From positions 92,793 to 156,792 of the forward strand of contig CAWANZ010000007.1 in NCBI GenBank assembly GCA_963783665.1: a stretch of 64,000 nt of DNA. Reading direction: 5' to 3'. Each line of letters starts with the position of its first letter. The first letter of the stretch is position 1. The position numbers were made by a program, and so were the translations under genes. The stretch is from Candidatus Aminicenantes bacterium. Lineage in GTDB: Bacteria; Acidobacteriota; Aminicenantia; Aminicenantales; UBA4085. The notes under the pieces are model-generated. The model was not told the origin of the DNA, did no database searches, and worked only from the letters and a program-made list of their open reading frames with translations. Positions 4,958-64,000 of the stretch are shown here, one piece after another.

Positions 4958-5569
4958 TCACGAGCCGAGATAGAGGGGGAGCCGGCGAATCATTGCCGCC
5001 AGAGCCCGGCCCCGGTGGCTGACGGAATTCTTTTCTGTCGGGGAAACTTCGGCAAATGTCCGGCGAAGGGGATGATAATAAAAAACGGGATCGTACCCGA
5101 AGCCGTTTTTGCCGCACGGCTCCGGGGCGATGGTCCCCCGGACGGTTCCGCGGACGACCTCGAGAATCCGGCCGTCGCGGGCCAGCGCCATGGCGCAGAC
5201 GAATCGGGCCCGGCGCCGGTTCCGGGGAACGGCCGCGAGGAGGCGGAGAACCTTGGCCACGTTGCGGGAGTCGGTCGCGGCCGGTCCGGAAAAACGGGCG
5301 GAGTAAACGCCAGGTTTTCCTCCCAAGGCTTCGATTTCGAGGCCGGAATCTTCGGCCAGTGTCAGGCAACCGCTGCGGCGGCTGTAGAATTCGGCTTTTT
5401 CCCGGGCGTTGGCTTCGAACGTCAATCCTTTCTCGGGGCACGGAAGGTCGATCCCGGCCTCCGAAAGGGAGAGGACGCGGAGGGGGAAAGCTGAAAAGGC
5501 GGCGGCGATTTCCCGGGCTTTTCCGCGGTTTGTCGTGGCGACCAGGAGAACGGATTTTCGCGGCGCCAC
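4958..5569 (-). CDS. rdgB: non-canonical purine NTP pyrophosphatase (dITP/XTP), RdgB/HAM1 family
   Basis: VLLVATTNRGKAREI..., FGYDPVF and SHRGRA motifs typical of RdgB. Confidence 0.9.
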   Translation of the reverse strand: MAPRKSVLLVATTNRGKAREIAAAFSAFPLRVLSLSEAGIDLPCPEKGLTFEANAREKAEFYSRRSGCLTLAEDSGLEIEALGGKPGVYSARFSGPAATDSRNVAKVLRLLAAVPRNRRRARFVCAMALARDGRILEVVRGTVRGTIAPEPCGKNGFGYDPVFYYHPLRRTFAEVSPTEKNSVSHRGRALAAMIRRLPLYLGS

Positions 5570-5575
5570 GGCCGA

Positions 5576-6484
5576 TCAGCGCCCGACGGCGTCCTTGAAA
5601 AAGGCGAGGGCGAACAGGGCGACAAGAAAGATCGCGTACAGGGCGTATTTCGGCCGGACGAACAGCTGCTCCGGCTCTTCCATCACTTCGGCCTCGCGGA
5701 GCGTCTTGCGGAAAATCAAACCGAAGAAGAACAGGAGGAACGGGGCGATGGCATAAAACGATTGAAGCCGGTAATCCCAGGCGAAATAGAGAAAGGCTAG
5801 CAGGCAGATAACCGCGCTGGCGGTCATCCCCGCGACCAGGGATGTCCGCGTGTACTTCCGGTGGGAAACACGGTATTCGCCGGCTTTGTCCTTGAGGAAG
5901 CGGAATTCCGACAACCGCTTGGCGATCATGAGAAAATTGCCGAAGGCCCACCAGCAGACGAGGACGGACAGGGGCGGCAGCTCCCCAATCACGGCCAAGG
6001 CCGACCAGCCGATCATGAACCGGATCGGATTGTTGACCGATTCGGATATCGAGTCGAAGAAGGGAATGTCCTTGGCCCGGATCGGGCGGACGTTATAAAT
6101 GACGCCGGCGACCAGGAGCAAGAGCAGGCCGAGGAACAAGGTCCGGTTGAAGAGAAGACCGGCCGCGCCCAGGCAGACGGCCGCAAGGACGAGGCCGATC
6201 ACGGCGAAGGGGCGCTGCCGGATTTCGCCGCTGACGAGGGGCCGGAGCCGCTTGGTTGGATGATGAACATCAAAGGGGCGATCGACGATCTCGTTGAGAA
6301 CGTAGTTGGCCGTCGAGATGCCCCAGGTGAGAAGGAACGCCGCCGCCAGCCGCCAGGCGATCTCCAGGGCGGAGAACACGGCGGCTTCGTCCCGGTGGAG
6401 GAAAACGAAAACGGCCGTCCCGATGAAAATGGCCAGGCTCCGGGGCCAGCGCTCCAGCCGGAGGGCCCGAAGATAGGCGTTCAC
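5576..6484 (-). CDS. UbiA-family polyprenyl/prenyl-phosphate transferase (integral membrane)
   Basis: About 8 hydrophobic segments and the Asp-rich motif NEIVDRPFD (NxxxDxxxD). I place the start at GTG 6484, which overlaps the upstream methyltransferase stop in a GTGA. The longer track ORF (to 6736) runs inside that gene. Confidence 0.8.
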   Translation of the reverse strand: MNAYLRALRLERWPRSLAIFIGTAVFVFLHRDEAAVFSALEIAWRLAAAFLLTWGISTANYVLNEIVDRPFDVHHPTKRLRPLVSGEIRQRPFAVIGLVLAAVCLGAAGLLFNRTLFLGLLLLLVAGVIYNVRPIRAKDIPFFDSISESVNNPIRFMIGWSALAVIGELPPLSVLVCWWAFGNFLMIAKRLSEFRFLKDKAGEYRVSHRKYTRTSLVAGMTASAVICLLAFLYFAWDYRLQSFYAIAPFLLFFFGLIFRKTLREAEVMEEPEQLFVRPKYALYAIFLVALFALAFFKDAVGR

Positions 6485-7389
6485 GCAGTTCCGTCCTTCA
6501 CGGCGTAGATTTCGAACGAATCGCCGAGCGACAATTTTATCGGGATCCGGCGAAGAAAAAAAGATGCCCGGATTCGGGTGAAGATCCGGAGCGGCTTGAG
6601 GCGGGACACGAGGTAATGCAGGCTGAACGTCCAGGCGTAGCGCCGGTGATCCAGAATCCGGAACCCGGCCTCCTCTAAGAGGACACGGAGGCTTTCCTTT
6701 GAAAAATAGGCCACGTGTCCCGGCCGGAGGTGCCACCAGCGCCGCCCGGACAACCGGGCCAACCGGCTGTGGATGTCGGGCGTGACGAGGCAGAGGATGC
6801 CGCCGGGTGCAAGGATCGAAAAGGCCTTGGCTGCGGCTGCGGCCGGCCGGGGCGTGTGCTCGATGAAATCGACCATCGTCACGGCCTGAAACGACGCGGC
6901 CCGGATCGCGATGTCTTCGAATCCGCCTTCGCGGAGGACAATCCCGTGTTTTTCCGAAGCGAAGCGGACGGCCCAGGCGCTCGGGTCGACACCGTCGACA
7001 TCCCAGCCGCGCCGACGGGCCGCGTCGCAGAGAATGCCCGTGGCCGCGCCGACGTCGAAGAGCCGTCCGCGTTCGGGCCGGAGGGCGTCCAACCGGTCCA
7101 GGATGGGGAGAAAATTCTGCGTTCGGCCCTCAGCCTCCTGGTCATACAACGGATCTTCGACCCGCCCGTACAGGGCCGAGAGAAAATCCGGGGCGGGGGC
7201 GGGATCGGCGAAGATATGGCCGCAGGTCGAGCAGGCGGAGAGGTTCCAGATCTTGCCGTATTCGCTGTCCGTGATCTTGATCTGCTCGGGAGAGAGGCCC
7301 TCGTAAGCGAAATTCCCTTTTTTCCAGAGGGCGATATCCCGGCCGCGGCAAACGGGGCAGCCGTCCGGCCGGAGAAAGGTCCCCGTCAT
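6481..7389 (-). CDS. class I SAM-dependent methyltransferase with N-terminal Cys4 zinc ribbon
   Basis: CPVCRG...CSTCGH ribbon, SAM motif I (LFDVGAATG) and a 4-nt overlap with the upstream response regulator gene. Confidence 0.8.
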   Translation of the reverse strand: MTGTFLRPDGCPVCRGRDIALWKKGNFAYEGLSPEQIKITDSEYGKIWNLSACSTCGHIFADPAPAPDFLSALYGRVEDPLYDQEAEGRTQNFLPILDRLDALRPERGRLFDVGAATGILCDAARRRGWDVDGVDPSAWAVRFASEKHGIVLREGGFEDIAIRAASFQAVTMVDFIEHTPRPAAAAAKAFSILAPGGILCLVTPDIHSRLARLSGRRWWHLRPGHVAYFSKESLRVLLEEAGFRILDHRRYAWTFSLHYLVSRLKPLRIFTRIRASFFLRRIPIKLSLGDSFEIYAVKDGTA

Positions 7390-10346: not shown

Positions 10347-11324
10347 GTGAATCTGAGCAAAATCGCTGCTTTGGCGATTGTTTTGTCATGGACTTCCTTC
10401 TCGTTCGCTCAAGAGGCCGCCGCTCCGCCGGCGGTGACGGCGGGCAAGGCCGCAAAGCTTTCCGGGGTCATTCAAGTTTTGGGGAAAAAGCAGGAGGCCG
10501 GCGTGGATTCGGTTTCCGTTCGCCGGGCCCGGTTCAGCCTTTTGGTCGATCTTTCCAAATCCTTGAAGGGTAAATTCATGATTGATGCCGTTCGTTCGCC
10601 CGTCCTGGTCGAGGCCCAGATCGACGCCGTGTTCTCGGAAGCGGCGACGCTGCGATTCGGCCAGTTCTACGTCCCGTTCGGTTTCGAAAGCACGACATCG
10701 GCGTCGGACCTGGAAATGATCAATTACGCTCAGCCCGTCGAGAAGCTCGCCCCCGGCCGGGACTTGGGAACGTTCGGGCGGGACGTGGGGGCGACGCTGA
10801 CCGGCAGGTATTCGATCTTCGATTACAGCCTCGGATTCTTCAACGGGGCCGGAGCCAATAAAGCGGACACGAACGACAAGAAGGATTTCGCCGGACGGAT
10901 CCGGGTCAAGCCGTTCGACTTTCTCAGTCTCGGAGCCAGCCTTTACCGAGGTCTTTATAGCGCCGCGGCCGGGACGCCGGCGACGACCCGCGATCGGACC
11001 GGCCTTGATGCGGCCGTGTCGCTCGGCCGGGCGACCTTGAAAGGGGAAGTCATCTGGGCGGTCGACGAGGCCACCGACAAATTCGGCTGGTTTGTCCGGG
11101 GAGCGTATTTTGTCCTCCCCAAGAAGCTGCAGGTCGCGGCGATGTTCGACACGTTCGATAAAAACCGGGATGCCGGGAACGACCGGGTGGATGTCTATAC
11201 CGCCGGCCTGAACTGGTTTTTCGCGGATAAAACAAAGGTTCAGGTGAATTATGAATATTCGCGAAACGAGCGGGCCCAGACGGTCAACAAGGCCCTCCTT
11301 GTCCAGTTCCAGGCATCATTTTAA
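10347..11324 (+). CDS. phosphate-selective porin O/P-like outer-membrane porin
   Basis: Signal peptide (…SFSFAQE), beta-strand-rich alternating pattern and a C-terminal ...VQFQASF. Sits directly upstream of pstS. GTG start after AGGAG. Confidence 0.75.
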   Translation: MNLSKIAALAIVLSWTSFSFAQEAAAPPAVTAGKAAKLSGVIQVLGKKQEAGVDSVSVRRARFSLLVDLSKSLKGKFMIDAVRSPVLVEAQIDAVFSEAATLRFGQFYVPFGFESTTSASDLEMINYAQPVEKLAPGRDLGTFGRDVGATLTGRYSIFDYSLGFFNGAGANKADTNDKKDFAGRIRVKPFDFLSLGASLYRGLYSAAAGTPATTRDRTGLDAAVSLGRATLKGEVIWAVDEATDKFGWFVRGAYFVLPKKLQVAAMFDTFDKNRDAGNDRVDVYTAGLNWFFADKTKVQVNYEYSRNERAQTVNKALLVQFQASF

Positions 11325-54731: not shown

Positions 54732-54992
54732 TTGAGCAAGCGCGACAAGCTGTTAGCGCGATTTCTGTCTAAACCAAAGGATTTCACGTTTGGCGAACTG
54801 AGAACTCTTTTGGAACGATTCGGTTACCGGGAATTTGCGGCCGGGGCGACCTCCGGCTCAAGGGTGATTTTCATCCAGACAGCTACTGGACATTTAATCC
54901 GGCTTCACAAACCGCATCCTTCTGATATTTTAAAAAGATATCAGTTGGATGCGATCGAGGAATGTCTTAGGGCGAAAGGACGGCTTAAATGA
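54732..54992 (+). CDS. hicA: HicA-family toxin (long form)
   Basis: KDFTFGELRTLLERFGY...GSRVIF...LHKPHP...LKRYQL pattern. TTG start. 4-nt overlap with hicB-2. Confidence 0.75.
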   Translation: MSKRDKLLARFLSKPKDFTFGELRTLLERFGYREFAAGATSGSRVIFIQTATGHLIRLHKPHPSDILKRYQLDAIEECLRAKGRLK

Positions 54993-55330
54993 AGAACGTC
55001 ATGGTTTACCGCGAATTTGCCGGGTCGGTCCATTATGAATCCCACGACGACTTTTTCCACGGGAAAATCGAAGGGATCGACGATTTGATCACGTTCGAAG
55101 GCCGGTCGGTCGCGGATTTGAAGAAAGCGTTTCGCGAGGCCGTCGACGATTATGAGAAAATTTGCTTGAACGCAGGGAAGTCCCCCCAGAAATCATATCG
55201 TGGAACGTTTAACGTCCGTGTCCCGCCGGCGCTCCACCACGCGGCCGCCCGTGCCTCCCTTCGGCAGGGGCTGACCTTGAATCAGTTCGTCCGAAAAGCT
55301 CTTGAACGAAGCGTGAGCGAATCGCGCTGA
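54989..55330 (+). CDS. hicB: HicB-family antitoxin with C-terminal RHH-like tail
   Basis: YREFAGSVHYESHDDFFHGKIEGIDDLITFEG...FNVRVPPALH... typical of HicB (COG4226-like). Confidence 0.8.
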   Translation: MKNVMVYREFAGSVHYESHDDFFHGKIEGIDDLITFEGRSVADLKKAFREAVDDYEKICLNAGKSPQKSYRGTFNVRVPPALHHAAARASLRQGLTLNQFVRKALERSVSESR

Positions 55331-58648: not shown

Positions 58649-58725
58649 GGGGCCGTAGTTCAGTTGGTTAGAACGCTGGCCTGTCACGTCAGAGGTCGCG
58701 AGTTCAAGTCTCGTCGGCCCCGCCA
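58649..58725 (+). tRNA. tRNA-Asp (anticodon GTC), CCA encoded
   Basis: Acceptor GGGGCCG/CGGCCCC, anticodon loop CTGTCAC, T-loop AGTTCAAGTCT, 3' GCCA. Confidence 0.9.
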
Positions 58726-58839: not shown

Positions 58840-59259
58840 TTGGAGATGAGCATGTTCAAAATGTTGTCCGAAAGAAAATGGTTGGCGTTGATTGGAGGAT
58901 TGGCGGCCGTCCTTCTGGCGCTGCCCGGATTCGCGGCCCAAAGCGCGGCCGGCCAGGATCCGACAAAGGTTTATGAGAAGTTCCTGGGCAAATATGAATT
59001 CGACTTAAGCGCGATGGGCGGCGGCTCTCGAATCTTTGAATTCTATGTAAAGGACGGCGCCTTTTGGATCGAGTACGGCTTCACCTCGCCGGGGGAGCTG
59101 AAGGCGGTGACGAATACCGTCGATGAATTCACTTTCGACGAACCCGATGACGGGCTGATTAAGATCACCTTTCAGAAAGATACCGAAGGCAATTATTCGA
59201 AGTGTCGTTTCGTTGTCGAATCCCTGGGCGTGGATATCGTCGGCGATAAGATGAAGTGA
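58840..59259 (+). CDS. secreted hypothetical protein
   Basis: Signal peptide ...LIGGLAAVLLALPGFAAQ. The likely start is ATG 58852 (GGAG upstream). Confidence 0.55.
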   Translation: MEMSMFKMLSERKWLALIGGLAAVLLALPGFAAQSAAGQDPTKVYEKFLGKYEFDLSAMGGGSRIFEFYVKDGAFWIEYGFTSPGELKAVTNTVDEFTFDEPDDGLIKITFQKDTEGNYSKCRFVVESLGVDIVGDKMK

Positions 59260-59643: not shown

Positions 59644-59922
59644 ATGATAATAACACTCGCGACGATCGTGAAGAAAAACGAGGATGTCATCGCCGGCAGC
59701 ATCGACCGGGAAATCGTGGCGATGAATATTCAGACCGGCAAATGCTTCCAATTAAACGAAACCGGAGGCCGCACCCTGGCCCTTCTCGATCAACCCCGTT
59801 CAGTCGGGGATTTGTGCGAGGAGATGGCCGCCGGATACGATATCGACAGGGAAATCTGCCGGAGGGATGTCATCGAATTCATCCAGGCCGTGGAAGAATT
59901 TGGCTTGATCAAGGTCGAATGA
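59644..59922 (+). CDS. PqqD-family peptide chaperone (stand-alone RiPP recognition element)
   Basis: 92 aa. The pattern ...DREIVAMNIQTGKCFQLNETGGRTLALLDQPRSVGDLCEEMAAGYDIDREICRRDVIEFIQAVEEFGLI matches the PqqD / lasso-B1 wHTH layout. GGGAGAG RBS. Confidence 0.85.
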   Translation: MIITLATIVKKNEDVIAGSIDREIVAMNIQTGKCFQLNETGGRTLALLDQPRSVGDLCEEMAAGYDIDREICRRDVIEFIQAVEEFGLIKVE

Positions 59923-60003
59923 CCGGCCCCTCTGACCCCAAGCGCCTCTTGCTATTTAAGAATTTATACCGTATCTTATAACGAGAGAGCGGGAGGTTTG
60001 CAA

Positions 60004-60150
60004 ATGGAAAATAAGAAAGATCAGAAAGAAGAGGGCCCTCGTCAATCGCTTCCGAAATGGGAAAAGCCTTCGGTGAAGGAAATCGATATTACAGTGGCCT
60101 CCGGATTGACCTTTACCTCCGTCGGCACTGATAATGTAATGTACAGTTGA
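60004..60150 (+). CDS. candidate RiPP precursor peptide, 48 aa (absent from the supplied ORF track)
   Basis: Own translation: MENKKDQKEEGPRQSLPKWEKPSVKEIDITVASGLTFTSVGTDNVMYS. GGGAGG lies 7 nt upstream of the ATG. It sits 81 nt after the PqqD gene. The WEKPSVKEIDI leader resembles PqqA (WxKPxhxxhxI) and lasso (YxxPxL...T-x) leaders. Confidence 0.7.
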   Translation: MENKKDQKEEGPRQSLPKWEKPSVKEIDITVASGLTFTSVGTDNVMYS

Positions 60151-60215
60151 AAGTTCGACGGAGCCCTCCCGGCGACCGTCCTAAATAACCGCTGACTTCG
60201 TGCGGCGGCGTCTTT

Positions 60216-60244: not shown

Positions 60245-61273
60245 TCACTCTTCGTCGATATCGAAATCGTTCGTTTGCCGGTGTCCCATCGCCGTTACGA
60301 TCTCCTCGAGAGTGAACCATTGGTCGAATTTTTGAAAATCCAAGAACACTTCGCATGAGGCGCAAGGAATTCCGGCGCGGGCGGGGGCTGCTCCCATGAG
60401 CATTTGTCTCGCGTATCGCATTGCGCCGTTGTTGATCTCCTCCGCGAATCTTCCGCCCAGGGCGTTGTCGGCGTACACCCCGCTCACATTGTGACTGCAA
60501 CCGAGCAGCCGACCGTCCCAGCTGACCTGCGGAGACCTCCAGATCTCGAGACAGATGTTGCGCATGTAAATCTTGCCGGTCTTTTCCCGGAACGACTCCG
60601 TATCGTGAAATCCGATCATCCGCGTCAGGGCTTCATGATCGCGCACCGGGAGGAATCCCTTAAAGACATTAAGCTTGATGAAGAGTTCCATGCCCAGGGC
60701 TTTGGCCAAGACCGCGATCTTGCCGATCTCGTGTTCATTGTGTTCGAAGGGGATGAACTGGAGGATCAATCGAGGCCGGCCGCTTCGGCTCCGGTTTTTC
60801 AACTCGTTGATCTTTTGAACGTTGTTCAGGACTTTTCTCAGGTTCCCCCCGACCCGGTATGTTTGATACGTATCTTGCGTCGATCCGTCGATCGACACTT
60901 TCAAAAGCGCAACGCCGTACTTGACGAGGGCTTCCAAGGCTTCGTCGGAGGCGTCATTGAGGTTCGAGCCTTGTTTGATTGTGATCGTCACGCCCTTGTC
61001 ATGCGCGTATTTCAACATGGCGGGCAGCTCAGGATTGAGAAACACTTCGCCCGAATTTCCGATTTCGATGGCCCGGATTTGGGGATTTTCATCGATGAAT
61101 TCGATGAAGCGGGAGGCCGGCATAATCCCGCTCCCGATGAATGGCCTTCCCTTCCGGTGCCGGACGGGGCAGAGCAGGCAGCGGAGCTGACACCGGCTGC
61201 TGACATCAAGCCGTGCCGATTGCGGGTAGACCCGCAGGCCGTCAGCGCTTAATCGTTCTTCTCTGCCGGTCAT
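60245..61273 (-). CDS. radical SAM enzyme with partial SPASM/twitch-type C-terminal Cys domain
   Basis: CQLRCLLCP (Cx3Cx2C) about 30 aa from the N-terminus and the GGE-like motif GNSGEVFLNP. C-terminal CLEIWRSPQVSWDGRLLGC (Cx12Gx4C) followed by CASC. Start taken at the ATG overlapping the upstream stop (ATGA). An alternative in-frame ATG lies at 61291. Confidence 0.85.
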   Translation of the reverse strand: MTGREERLSADGLRVYPQSARLDVSSRCQLRCLLCPVRHRKGRPFIGSGIMPASRFIEFIDENPQIRAIEIGNSGEVFLNPELPAMLKYAHDKGVTITIKQGSNLNDASDEALEALVKYGVALLKVSIDGSTQDTYQTYRVGGNLRKVLNNVQKINELKNRSRSGRPRLILQFIPFEHNEHEIGKIAVLAKALGMELFIKLNVFKGFLPVRDHEALTRMIGFHDTESFREKTGKIYMRNICLEIWRSPQVSWDGRLLGCSHNVSGVYADNALGGRFAEEINNGAMRYARQMLMGAAPARAGIPCASCEVFLDFQKFDQWFTLEEIVTAMGHRQTNDFDIDEE

Positions 61274-62436
61274 TCCGCTTTGTTCAGACATGTCTTCGAG
61301 ATCTCCTTGACCGTTCGGGGTGAATCGTATCCCGAGTATTTTGCGGAAAAGGCGGCGGCCTTTTCCCGAAGGCCGGCCGAAGCGGCCGTGCAGTCGAACT
61401 TTTCCCGGACACGTTCGCTTTTGTCGAAAAAGCTTGCGAATTCGCATAGCCCCTGCTTTTGCAGCCGGTAGGCCAGGAGGGTTTGCTCGAGCTGTTCCGG
61501 ACAAAGGAGCAAGGGCTTGCCCGCAAGGAGCAGGCGGGTAGTCGTCGTCAGGCCTCCGTGCGTGACGGCCAGGTCGCATTCGGACGCGGCTCGTGAAAGA
61601 TCAATCGGTGAAGCGTGGATGCGGATCGTGGGCGATTCCATCATGTGCCGTTCGGATTCGGGCATATTCTTGACGTATCCGATCGCGGATAGTCCGAGCC
61701 TTCCGATATGATCGATGAAATCCTTGAGACAGCGATTGGCCATGCTCATATAGAATAATACCCTGGGCGTGCTTCCTTCCGGCCAGCGATAGTCGGCCTC
61801 AGTTCCACCGTCCAGAATCGGCCCCCAATACCGATCTTCCACCCGGTTTTCATAAGAATCGGTCTCGCGAAAGATCGTCAAGAAGCGTTGCGCGCCGCGA
61901 AAAATGTCAGCGACGGAATCGATCGAAGCCTCCACGCTTCGCAGCCTTTCCACGAGCATCGCTTCCGCCTCCGCAAGACGCATCTCCGGCAGAGAAAGCC
62001 AGGGATGGAGGCTGGGCATCGGGACTGCGGCCGGAGGGACGGTGAACCCTGTTCCGATAATCCCGCGGGGAATGGCGGAGGTCAAGGCGGACAGGAGGGC
62101 GGTGGGGGCATAATCCGAAAGGACATAATCAGGCTTGATCGCACGGAAGCGCTCCATCCACCATGCGAAATGAGATCGGAACAGCGCCTCGTCCCAGTAG
62201 CCGTTGCCCCAGATGCATTGTGCGAAGTTCAGCGAAAAACCGGTTTTGCGAATGATCCAGGCCGGGGTTTGCTCGATTTCAACGCCGAGCCCCTCCATGG
62301 CGACGCGGGCTTTAGCCGCATCATGACAAAAGACAACGACCCTGTTGCCGTCGGCAGTCAATTCCCGCGCGATCGGTTTGAGGCGAAGGATATGTCCCCA
62401 TCCCCCTCCCATCTCATTGGCGAAAACGATTTTCAT
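61270..62436 (-). CDS. GT-B fold glycosyltransferase (GT1/GT28, MGT/UDP-glycosyltransferase-like)
   Basis: MKIVFANEMGGGWGH N-terminal Gly-rich motif. C-terminal nucleotide-sugar motif THGGLTTTTRLLLAGKPLLLCP..EQ. Start moved to ATG 62436. Confidence 0.75.
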   Translation of the reverse strand: MKIVFANEMGGGWGHILRLKPIARELTADGNRVVVFCHDAAKARVAMEGLGVEIEQTPAWIIRKTGFSLNFAQCIWGNGYWDEALFRSHFAWWMERFRAIKPDYVLSDYAPTALLSALTSAIPRGIIGTGFTVPPAAVPMPSLHPWLSLPEMRLAEAEAMLVERLRSVEASIDSVADIFRGAQRFLTIFRETDSYENRVEDRYWGPILDGGTEADYRWPEGSTPRVLFYMSMANRCLKDFIDHIGRLGLSAIGYVKNMPESERHMMESPTIRIHASPIDLSRAASECDLAVTHGGLTTTTRLLLAGKPLLLCPEQLEQTLLAYRLQKQGLCEFASFFDKSERVREKFDCTAASAGLREKAAAFSAKYSGYDSPRTVKEISKTCLNKAE

Positions 62437-62456: not shown

Positions 62457-63440
62457 CTATTGATTCATGTGAGAATCGAGAATGATGCGGCAGAGTTCCT
62501 CCGGCCGCGGCGGCTCGGCGGGAAGACGGATTTCCTCCACCTTCACTCCGGCCGCAAGCGTCTGCAACAAATGAAAAAGGCGAAGCCGGTTTCCGGTATC
62601 CCCCATGGAATGGAGACAAAAGACGTGTTCCACAAGAGCCTGAAATTTGGCCGCGCCCGTGAGGTTTTCGAAAACGAGGGATGAATTCTGCGTCCGGCGC
62701 AGGATGAATATCTTCTTTAAAGAGGAAGGGACCTTCTTGAAATTAGTCCGGGCCAGGACGGCGATTTTATTCAAGGCCGGTTTTACCGGACCCGCAATCG
62801 TATGCTCGAATTTGATGTTCCGTAAAGCGTCGCCCCAAACCCTGATTTCAGGTATTCCCGGGACTACCCGGGGGCCGTCATCCTGAAAATCAATCACCGC
62901 CACATTGTCATCCAAGTATAGAAATCCGGCATTTAGAAAAGCGACGGCCATGGTGGACTTGCCGGCCCCGGATTCGGCGCAGATCGTGAAACACGACTCT
63001 CCGCGGCAGAGCGTGCTGCCGTGGAGGGGAAGCAGCCCGAGCTGGTGGAATATCCCGGCCAGAGCCCATCCCAGCAGCATTTGCCTGATCACGCCGGGAT
63101 TTCCCCCGGGGAGCCGTTCGACCGTTATGGTCTTGCCTTCTGAGATGAGAATCGTGGCGCTTTTCGACCCGCGGAGAAGGATCCTGCCCGGCGAGGCTTC
63201 AATCCGCACGGAGTCCGGCGGGACGTAGTCTGGGCCGAAAATCACGCCATGCCGGATCTCGATATCGGCCGCTCCGGAAGCAGGAGCGGCGGGCCACTGG
63301 GGAAAACGGATTTCAGATGAAAAATTGAGTCCGTAGGCTTGGTAGAAGTATGGATCGCCCGAAAAGAGCTCATCGTCCATCAGCAAACCGCCAGCCGCGC
63401 CGTCACGGCTCCGGTCAGGCATGGTGGAATTCGATTCCAT
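62457..63440 (-). CDS. HPr-kinase-like (HprK-related) P-loop serine kinase
   Basis: Walker A in the HprK C-domain context: LHGSTLCRGESCFTICAESGAGKSTMAVAFLNAGFLYLDDN. Size and layout resemble RiPP-associated HprK-related kinases. The start is uncertain (63440, 63422 or 63380). Confidence 0.75.
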   Translation of the reverse strand: MESNSTMPDRSRDGAAGGLLMDDELFSGDPYFYQAYGLNFSSEIRFPQWPAAPASGAADIEIRHGVIFGPDYVPPDSVRIEASPGRILLRGSKSATILISEGKTITVERLPGGNPGVIRQMLLGWALAGIFHQLGLLPLHGSTLCRGESCFTICAESGAGKSTMAVAFLNAGFLYLDDNVAVIDFQDDGPRVVPGIPEIRVWGDALRNIKFEHTIAGPVKPALNKIAVLARTNFKKVPSSLKKIFILRRTQNSSLVFENLTGAAKFQALVEHVFCLHSMGDTGNRLRLFHLLQTLAAGVKVEEIRLPAEPPRPEELCRIILDSHMNQ

Positions 63441-63996
63441 AAAACCTCGCCGGCATGAAGCCGCGATGGTTCAAGTTATGCGGGATGCGGGCTCCCATGA
63501 AGGCAAAGCCCGGGGCGTTGACGGTCTTCCCCAGGATTTCAAGGGAACCCTCGACGAGCACGATCAACGTCTCATGGTCATCACGGTGCAACGGGATCGC
63601 ATTGCCGGATGATAGCTTGTGATAGCGCACGTTCAAGCGGGGAAGAAAGCGCGTCGGACCGGAATAGACTTCGATTGTTCCGGGCTCTTCGTCCGATAAG
63701 GCCGCCTGGCGGGCGCCCCGGCGATAAAGAAAGTGCAGCCCTGCCTTGCCGTTCGCGAACGGTGGGCTTTTACGCCATCTGATATGCAGATACTCGGCCG
63801 GTTCATCGCCGGAATTTTGGGAATTATGCGGAATTGTCGAGTCCAGAAAAAAAAGCGAACCGCTCTCAGGAGCGGACGTCCGCTTTTCCCCAGAATCGGG
63901 GTCGCGGAAGGTGAATTGAATATTGTCGGAAAGGGTAATGTGCATCTCTTCGTGATCGTGGGTGTGAATTTCATGGGGGGCGACGTTTGCGCTCAT
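63415..63996 (-). CDS. cupin-domain protein (two cupin-like halves)
   Basis: HEIHTHDHEEMHITL (HxH...E metal motif) in the N-terminal half and PLHRDDHETLIVLVEG in the C-terminal half. Overlaps the kinase ORF by 26 nt. Its upstream region lies outside the window. Confidence 0.6.
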   Translation of the reverse strand: MSANVAPHEIHTHDHEEMHITLSDNIQFTFRDPDSGEKRTSAPESGSLFFLDSTIPHNSQNSGDEPAEYLHIRWRKSPPFANGKAGLHFLYRRGARQAALSDEEPGTIEVYSGPTRFLPRLNVRYHKLSSGNAIPLHRDDHETLIVLVEGSLEILGKTVNAPGFAFMGARIPHNLNHRGFMPARFYGIEFHHA

Positions 63997-64000
63997 GACC

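Follow-up and report, generated by a model that had tools for sequence, protein, structure and literature searches.

A 48-codon gene behind a PqqD-family gene in Candidatus Aminicenantes very probably encodes the precursor of a paeninodin-like lasso peptide

The 64,000-nt stretch of Candidatus Aminicenantes DNA analysed here (hereafter the window; contig CAWANZ010000007.1, positions 92,793 to 156,792, forward strand) contains a 48-codon open reading frame (ORF) located directly behind a gene coding for a PqqD-family protein, which raises the question of whether so short an ORF is a gene at all and, if it is, to which class of peptides made on the ribosome and modified after translation (RiPPs) its product belongs. 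The original prediction, made from the letters of the window alone, described it as a RiPP precursor which resembles both PqqA and lasso precursors and fits neither class. According to the comparison presented below, the ORF very probably encodes the precursor (A peptide) of a class II lasso peptide of the kinase-tailored, paeninodin/pseudomycoidin type, an assignment made because of a macrolactam cyclase, a kinase motif, a W-x-x-P leader, an Asp at core position 9 and a C-terminal Ser. The precursor and its two predicted parts are as follows:

60004-60150, + strand: precursor ORF, 48 codons, ATG at 60004 and TGA at 60148-60150
60004-60105, + strand: predicted leader peptide, codons 1-34, MENKKDQKEEGPRQSLPKWEKPSVKEIDITVASG, delimited by the family alignment and position counts
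60106-60150, + strand: predicted core peptide with the stop codon, codons 35-48, LTFTSVGTDNVMYS

The ORF is translated as MENKKDQKEEGPRQSLPKWEKPSVKEIDITVASGLTFTSVGTDNVMYS and is preceded by a GGGAGG ribosome-binding site at 59991-59996, 7 nt ahead of the ATG; its position, this site and the 81-nt gap behind the PqqD-family gene are all as first described. The ORF is short and the 48-aa peptide matches no Pfam or NCBIfam model, both of which would suit an ORF that exists by chance, or a regulatory or non-coding RNA element between convergent genes, but the comparative data refute this explanation and leave it hardly any probability. A peptide identical to the precursor is present in public collections as a called but unnamed gene (P0001; NCBI/ENA/Logan), which lies on an NCBI contig of 1.117 Mb. 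Two other contigs carry a 75%-identical homologue after a 95%-identical PqqD gene, and 16 more homologues, in related clusters of Desulfatiglans, Smithella, Geobacter, Chloroflexi and Riflebacteria, occupy the equivalent position. The search of 1.84 billion proteins with a profile built from 20 precursor peptides resulted in 144 small-protein representatives (50%-identity clusters, E <= 1e-3), nearly all of them 40-60 aa long and aligned from end to end, and none bearing a functional name. They come from anaerobic Desulfobacterota, Chloroflexi and Riflebacteria, and the family is probably present in further phyla too. A Shine-Dalgarno sequence is found 7-13 nt upstream of the peptide gene in all 18 loci where that gene was located by exact match. 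The sole match in the Rfam scan was to an archaeal snoRNA model; it is sub-threshold, lies outside the ORF and was rejected as a chance match. Because amino-acid conservation of the peptide extends across phyla and the frame is never broken, the ORF is, judging by its homologues, a real and conserved protein-coding gene. Homologous small ORFs beside PqqD and HprK-like genes, conserved as amino acids, were what the original prediction proposed to look for, and finding them excludes an RNA element.

Comparison with the closest homologue, P0002, points to the nature of the product: the two PqqD genes share 95% DNA identity and the leader has hardly changed, while eight of the 14 residues of the core are different and the reading frame is intact. 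Such a contrast between a conserved leader and a hypervariable core is, as far as one pair of sequences can tell, the usual pattern of RiPP precursors. The dN/dS value for one close pair over the 14-codon core is 0.39, calculated from so few sites that it is uninformative. The conservation of the family and its position after the PqqD gene bear out the view of the ORF as a RiPP precursor.

The leader/core boundary was placed using 151 family peptides, namely the 144 profile matches less a few long proteins, plus the peptides found earlier. Counted from that boundary, the conserved positions are:

Position -16: Trp in 151/151 family peptides
Position -13: Pro in 151/151
Position -11: Val or Ile in 138/151
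Position -9: Asp or Glu in 132/151
Position -2: Thr in 143/151
C-terminal residue: Ser in 151/151
Last two residues: Tyr-Ser in 129/151

In the window peptide these leader positions correspond to W19 (-16), P22 (-13), V24 (-11) and S33 (-2), followed by G34 (-1). Since the conserved Thr(-2) of the family aligns with Ser33, we infer that the leader is cut after Gly34, which makes L35 the first core residue, Phe the third and Y47-S48 the C-terminus; and because the -2 residue is position 33, Asp43 would fall at core position 9, inside the range of positions 7-9 where a lasso core carries its Asp or Glu. The leader thus numbered, W19-x-x-P22-x-V24 with Ser33 at -2, follows the lasso pattern Y/W-x-x-P-x-L with a penultimate Thr, the closest homologue having Thr at the same place, and the counts support the earlier reading of W-x-K-P-x-V as a motif bound by a RiPP recognition element (RRE) of the PqqD family. 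The cleavage site first proposed, after Val31 with Thr30 as the -2 residue, was rejected as position 30 is variable in the family and the conserved Thr/Ser is at position 33; with it go the 17-aa core, where the Asp stood at position 12, and the statement that no acidic residue occurs at core positions 7-9. The canonical register would place W19 at -17 and the cut behind Leu35; it was rejected as well because it would shift the conserved Thr to -3. W19 at -16 lies between this canonical -17 and the -15 of the paeninodin-like precursor PbaA.

The cores of the family usually consist of 14 residues with the consensus [S/A/G]-G-F-T-G-x-G-x-D-[G/N]-G-x-Y-S, whose Asp, Tyr and Ser never vary in alignments A2 and A3. 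The commonest architecture, a 14-aa core with D9 and five residues behind the Asp, accounts for 65/151 peptides, and five residues follow the invariant Asp in 100/151. When the cut is counted from Thr(-2), this Asp stands at core position 8 or 9 in 117/151. Most cores begin with Ser, Ala or Gly, and 10/151 with Leu; citrulassin is a known lasso peptide beginning with Leu. Read from the alignment, the predicted core register with Asp9 and a C-terminal Tyr-Ser matches that of paeninodin and pseudomycoidin, in which the ring forms between an N-terminal Ala and an inner Asp and the C-terminal Ser carries a phosphate (PMC6993621).

The gene set around the precursor agrees with such an assignment. 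The three genes which carry it are:

59644-59922, + strand: PqqD-family RRE (lasso B1 protein), 92 aa (PF05402, E 6.1e-18)
62457-63422, - strand: HprK-like lasso-peptide kinase, 321 aa (TIGR04352 HprK_rel_A, E 1.5e-7, below cut-off)
Equivalent of window positions 64231-66147, immediately beyond the window: Asn-synthetase-like gene (cyclase), 638 aa

The last of them begins about 230 bp beyond base 64000 and was read from L001, a public contig with the same sequence (5299-7215), and from L004, a closely related strain (4977-6893) whose radical SAM (rSAM) enzyme is 97% identical to that of the window. The protein matches PF00733 (E 1.6e-25), and its best NCBIfam match is NF033535, "lasso peptide isopeptide bond-forming cyclase" (367.5 bits, E 1e-109), with the genuine Asn synthase model far below at 165 bits. 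This best model is named lass_lactam_cya, which we take to mean the cyanobacterial type. A macrolactam cyclase is therefore encoded with the precursor, as in lasso clusters. In L004, apparent indel errors of the long-read assembly at 10975-11202 and in neighbouring regions frameshift the peptide gene and the 3' end of the rSAM gene, and others split the MacB/FtsX transporter genes beside the cyclase; because of these apparent errors, the differences from the window there were not regarded as biology.

The kinase possesses the His/GxGKS/Asp-Asp arrangement published as the catalytic motif of lasso kinases (PMC9266682, PMC10368454): eight homologues share residues H134, G152-x-G154-K155-S156 and D171-D172 without exception, and the spacing of these residues equals that of H148/K169/S170/D186/D187 in BsfK to within one residue (PMC10368454). 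The search of PDB with the single kinase sequence gave no match, nor was the 327-aa form of the ORF found by exact look-up, the public gene call having a later start; the profile of the eight homologues matched the HPr kinase/phosphorylase structures 2qmh and 1jb1 across the motif region (E 1.3e-3). The precursor ends with Ser48, and a C-terminal Ser is "extremely conserved" in kinase-bearing lasso clusters, where the linear precursor receives its phosphate at this residue (PMC9266682), so that S48 is by analogy the predicted phosphorylation site; the invariant Ser of the family and the conserved kinase motif uphold the earlier suggestion that this residue is the signature of an HprK-type lasso kinase. 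The leader has W-x-x-P and not Y-x-x-P, and W-x-x-P is reported to be nearly invariant in paeninodin-like lasso leaders (PMC13381572). The RRE is represented by the B1/PqqD protein encoded beside the precursor, whose best NCBIfam match is lasso_PqqD_Bac (62.9 bits) and which probably aids phosphorylation of Ser48, as BsfB1 does. None of the related clusters lacks a PqqD gene, and wherever the peptide gene was located the PqqD gene immediately precedes it. The verdict that the peptide fits neither class is hence replaced by a paeninodin-like assignment; it had arisen because the cyclase lies past the window end and the cut had been placed three residues too early.

The related clusters, found through the closest homologues of the rSAM enzyme, are:

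L005: metagenome
L007: Desulfatiglans anilini AULM01000005
L009-L026: Smithella, Desulfatiglandaceae, Desulfobacterales, Geobacter, Chloroflexi and Riflebacteria
L089, L090: further related clusters

They share a recurring set of a cyclase, an HprK-like kinase, a PqqD protein, a small ORF, a glycosyltransferase (GT) and an rSAM enzyme, and a homologous peptide was recovered directly behind the PqqD gene in nearly every one of them. Several also contain a second rSAM enzyme, a cupin, a B2 peptidase, an NTP_transf_5 protein or an ABC transporter. Among the 16 clusters with enough flanking DNA the cyclase is found in 15 and B2 in five (L005, L007, L009, L016, L018), the B2 proteins of relatives including L005 and L007 being bona fide lasso B2 (NF033537, 95-103 bits, cut-off 33).

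Several points weigh against the lasso assignment. The scores of both the B1 protein and the cyclase are below the curated cut-offs of their lasso models (62.9 versus 80 bits and 367.5 versus 525 bits, respectively). No B/B2 leader peptidase (transglutaminase-like; PF13471/NF033537) was detected in the region searched, about 70 kb comprising the 64-kb window and about 5 kb beyond the cyclase in L004, with a hidden Markov model (HMM) built from five related B2 proteins at E <= 1. Ser occupies position -2 in only 2/151 family peptides. In 34/151 the invariant Asp stands at core position 10-11 when the cut is made two residues after the conserved Thr; these members, among them P0135, P0137, P0139-P0141 and P0144, are outside the natural ring range of 7-9. 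The Riflebacteria locus L092/L021 (JADFXM010000033) contains the kinase, PqqD, precursor, GT and rSAM genes with no cyclase or B2 within 10 kb on either side, and therefore the tailoring module can exist apart from lasso enzymes. Finally, five residues behind a nine-residue ring make a tail shorter than that of any characterised lasso peptide known to us, and the threaded product is therefore uncertain.

Some of these points would be expected of a decaying or silent lasso cluster, in which the precursor gene is intact and no mature product is formed since the leader peptidase is missing and Ser replaces Thr at -2, a rare residue there in this family. No NTP-transferase or lasso ABC exporter was found near the window cluster either, unlike in its relatives. 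Against decay, none of the seven cluster genes is truncated or frameshifted, the close homologue has a divergent core behind a retained leader, as is expected of an evolving precursor in use, and a MacB/FtsX-type transporter adjoins the cyclase. Moreover, pseudomycoidin is made without B1 or B2, a precedent for B2-independent synthesis, and the same paper describes a Stanieria cyanosphaera cluster in which a recognisable GT accompanies the cyclase and the kinase and no B genes occur (PMC6993621). B2 could also be encoded elsewhere in the genome. Decay is accordingly considered quite improbable.

A different explanation, closer to the original prediction, is that the module is not a lasso system at all and that the kinase, PqqD, GT and rSAM enzyme convert the precursor into a linear or rSAM-crosslinked phospho-glycopeptide, for example with an Asp-x3-Tyr C-C link of the kind made by PqqE, the cyclase being dispensable or secondary. 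It draws on the Riflebacteria module lacking a cyclase, on the absence of B2 from most clusters, on Asp-x3-Tyr occurring in 100/151 family peptides (the spacing is x4 or more in the remainder), on SuiB, SkfB and PqqE being among the structural neighbours of the rSAM enzyme, and on the LPP family, known non-lasso RiPPs which use HprK-like kinases and RREs (PMC13381572). This reading is unlikely, given that a cyclase is present here and in all but one of the clusters with adequate flanks, the Asp of most family members stands at lasso positions 8-9, the leader is of the W-x-x-P paeninodin type, no signal-peptidase-like gene was found among the called cluster genes, the rSAM enzyme is not PqqE-like by sequence and its distant relatives adjoin GT2 and sugar-epimerase genes.

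The two non-lasso systems in question can be compared with the window cluster directly. LPP peptides of Bacillota, with their HprK kinase, RRE, NTP transferase and SpI-like peptidase, are alike in having a kinase and a discrete RRE acting on a leader-bearing precursor (PMC13381572). Their Y-x-x-P leader, the kinase target Ser3 of a 45-aa core and signal-peptidase-I-like cleavage are absent here: the leader has W, core residue 3 is Phe, and no signal-peptidase annotation occurs among the called cluster genes. Only about one third of the SpI genes defining the LPP family are linked to lasso enzymes (PMC13381572). The PqqA/PqqD/PqqE system is similar in its small peptide with a W-x-K-P-x-hydrophobic leader, the PqqD RRE, a twitch/SPASM-like rSAM enzyme and an acidic-x3-Tyr pair near the C-terminus. 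It differs in that PqqA uses Glu, whereas the Asp here has no fixed spacing to Tyr, and in that the window cluster encodes a kinase along with its lasso cyclase. PqqB, PqqC and PqqF are absent from the window cluster, no PqqB or PqqC being found among the called genes, and the rSAM enzyme is not a PqqE orthologue, as the PqqE model TIGR02109 was not among the NCBIfam matches of the window rSAM enzyme at E < 0.01 and gave 27 bits (cut-off 381) with the paralogue rSAM2. The likeness of the core to the PqqA E-x3-Y crosslink pair, to which the original prediction drew attention, consequently gives no support for counting the peptide among PqqA precursors.

On the preferred, lasso reading, the paeninodin group and pseudomycoidin are among the closest known systems. 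In paeninodin the ring is closed between residue 1 and Asp9, like the ring predicted here, and the core is about 23 aa long versus 14 aa with five post-ring residues here. Paeninodin (PadeA; Paenibacillus dendritiformis), ThcoA and SyanA systems resemble the window cluster in the discrete PqqD-type B1 and the HprK-like kinase with His/Lys/Asp-Asp, as well as in the W-x-x-P leader, Thr/Ser at -2 and the C-terminal Ser phosphorylation site (PMC9266682, PMC13381572, PMC6993621). Unlike them, the window precursor has Leu as the first core residue, the cluster has a GT, an rSAM enzyme and a cupin added, and neither B2 nor an ABC exporter occurs nearby in the region searched. The hosts differ too, being Bacillota for paeninodin and anaerobic Desulfobacterota, Chloroflexi and Riflebacteria for the present family. 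Pseudomycoidin (PsmA; Bacillus pseudomycoides), whose C-terminal Ser is phosphorylated and then glycosylated, is a parallel in that its lasso forms without B2, as is predicted for the window cluster; its authors propose that a bulky C-terminal group locks the thread, an idea which they did not demonstrate (PMC6993621). Its PsmN is an NTP-transferase-like protein, whereas the window encodes a GT-B glycosyltransferase; the pseudomycoidin cluster has no rSAM enzyme or cupin, and B1 is retained only here. The Stanieria cyanosphaera cluster is alike in its cyclase, kinase and GT and, unlike the window cluster, has no B proteins.

The remaining features of the cluster are:

59923-60003, + strand: intergenic region with GGGAGG, the 81-nt gap from the PqqD gene end (59922) to the precursor ATG
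60189-60208, + strand: hairpin resembling a terminator, located where the precursor and rSAM genes converge, a consensus match only
60245-61273, - strand: radical SAM enzyme, 342 aa, PF04055, with CxxxCxxC and four conserved C-terminal Cys (twitch/SPASM-like)
61270-62436, - strand: GT-B type glycosyltransferase, 388 aa, MJ1255/VC2487 E 1e-11 and macrolide GT family E 8.5e-9, both below cut-off
63415-64000, - strand: cupin-domain protein, PF07883, E 2.3e-7, 5' end cut by the window end

The rSAM, GT, kinase and cupin genes form a minus-strand operon which converges on the precursor ORF. Between the PqqD gene and the precursor there is an AT-rich stretch, TTGCTATTTAAGAATTTATACCGTATCTTAT, which is conserved in the L002 homologue, as the two aligned intergenic regions show, and which could be a promoter of the precursor itself; the promoter consensus scan did not flag it. 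The terminator consensus scan found one site versus 1.4 expected by chance.

The rSAM enzyme has 169 homologues (E <= 1e-10). The Cys residues of CxxxCxxC and the four C-terminal ones are invariant, and the enzyme is syntenic in all related clusters and has no RRE domain of its own. Its best match among the genome contigs searched is 68% identical, the closest relatives being metagenome-assembled genomes of Deltaproteobacteria/Desulfobacterota. The AlphaFold2 model of the protein (mean predicted local distance difference test score 89.9) has Foldseek neighbours in which enzymes acting on sugars or nucleosides (BlsE, DesII, BtrN) and on peptides (SuiB, SkfB, CteB, EpeE, PqqE) are interleaved, with template modelling scores of 0.5-0.6. 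None of the more distant homologues (L027-L088, about 60 loci, 39-46% identity) is in a lasso cluster; their hosts include Alphaproteobacteria, Acidobacteria, Actinobacteria, cyanobacteria and a Methanoregulaceae archaeon. Their commonest neighbours are glycosyltransferase family 2 (GT2) proteins (13 loci) and NAD-dependent epimerase-like proteins (six loci, identified by eye), and these neighbourhoods weakly favour glycan chemistry. An action of the rSAM enzyme on a sugar rather than on the peptide is thus slightly favoured; on the peptide, the invariant Tyr, Thr residues or Asp/Asn are possible targets.

The cupin is 248 aa at full length, as seen in L001, and scored 21.4 bits with the aspartyl/asparaginyl beta-hydroxylase model, just under the cut-off of 22.6. 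Cupin-rSAM fusions of 550-590 aa occur in some Chloroflexi and metagenome relatives (P0065, P0068, P0069, P0073; L019 9167-10984), which suggests that the two proteins may act together. The GT has weak Pfam GT matches and is conserved beside the peptide gene.

The pathway would then proceed as follows. The 34-residue leader would bind the PqqD-like B1 protein through W19-x-x-P22-x-V24, by analogy with the biochemistry of PadeB1 and PbaB1, and the HprK-like kinase would phosphorylate the Ser48 side chain on the linear precursor, as PadeK, ThcoK and PsmK do. The leader would be cut after Gly34, with Ser33 in the place of Thr(-2) as the family alignment indicates, and the cyclase would join the amine of Leu35 to the side chain of Asp43 to give a nine-residue ring and the five-residue tail N-V-M-Y-S. 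The calculated monoisotopic neutral masses are 1533.702 for the linear core, 1515.692 for the macrolactam, 1595.658 once HPO3 is added and 1757.711 with HPO3 and a hexose. More speculatively, the GT, the rSAM enzyme and the cupin could tailor the product further, most likely with a sugar, possibly modified, on or near the phospho-Ser, and such a bulky phospho-sugar in so short a tail could serve as the lower lock of the lasso. The post-ring pattern D-[G/N]-G-x-Y-S, a Gly-rich turn followed by Tyr-Ser, would fit a minimal loop with the Tyr at or above the ring and the modified Ser below it. Taken jointly, these would be the first rSAM-tailored lasso peptides and the shortest-tailed ones (9 + 5), their thread held by a phospho-glycosyl group which the kinase, the GT and the rSAM enzyme/cupin build on the C-terminal Ser, some having 10-11-residue rings and most maturing without a dedicated B2; as a whole this combination is tentative and rather doubtful.

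With regard to the genomic surroundings, a tRNA-Asp gene (58649-58725, + strand) lies directly upstream of the cluster, which is flanked by genes for paralogous signal-peptide proteins of about 135 aa (31% identical, E 6e-21), one at 58840-59259 (+ strand) before PqqD and the other at L004 4383-4781 beyond the cyclase. The GC content of the cluster is 0.49-0.58 versus about 0.60 around it, and the cluster may be a tRNA-associated island. Farther upstream, the ORFs 54732-54992 and 54989-55330 (+ strand; 86 and 113 aa, 4-nt overlap) have by eye the look of a HicA/HicB-type toxin-antitoxin pair, with a dip in GC to 0.466. Type II secretion/pseudopilin genes (Secretin, N_methyl, T2SSF) adjoin the cluster in D. 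anilini (L007, 14.8-21 kb) and in L092 (4.8-8.4 kb); this adjacency in two distant taxa may be a coincidence or a functional link.

Neither this type of cluster nor any characterised lasso peptide whose making involves a radical SAM enzyme turned up in the literature searches, which included lasso with Desulfatiglans and lasso together with radical SAM, kinase and cupin. The lasso review of June 2026 covers phosphorylation, glycosylation, acetylation, halogenation, prenylation and other modifications and does not mention radical SAM (PMC13352647). These loci would probably already be recognised as lasso clusters by RODEO or antiSMASH. The cluster type itself, combining a kinase, a GT, one or two rSAM enzymes and a cupin with a 14-aa core and often no B2, appears uncharacterised.

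The main outcome is a correction, in that the peptide belongs to the paeninodin-like lasso peptides and not to an orphan class. The cluster is at the same time a useful lead for genome mining, and the family bears on several questions of lasso biology: its minimal 14-residue core on how short a lasso tail can be, its C-terminal Ser on the phospho-sugar as a possible thread lock, and the frequent absence of B2 on how the leader is removed in such systems.

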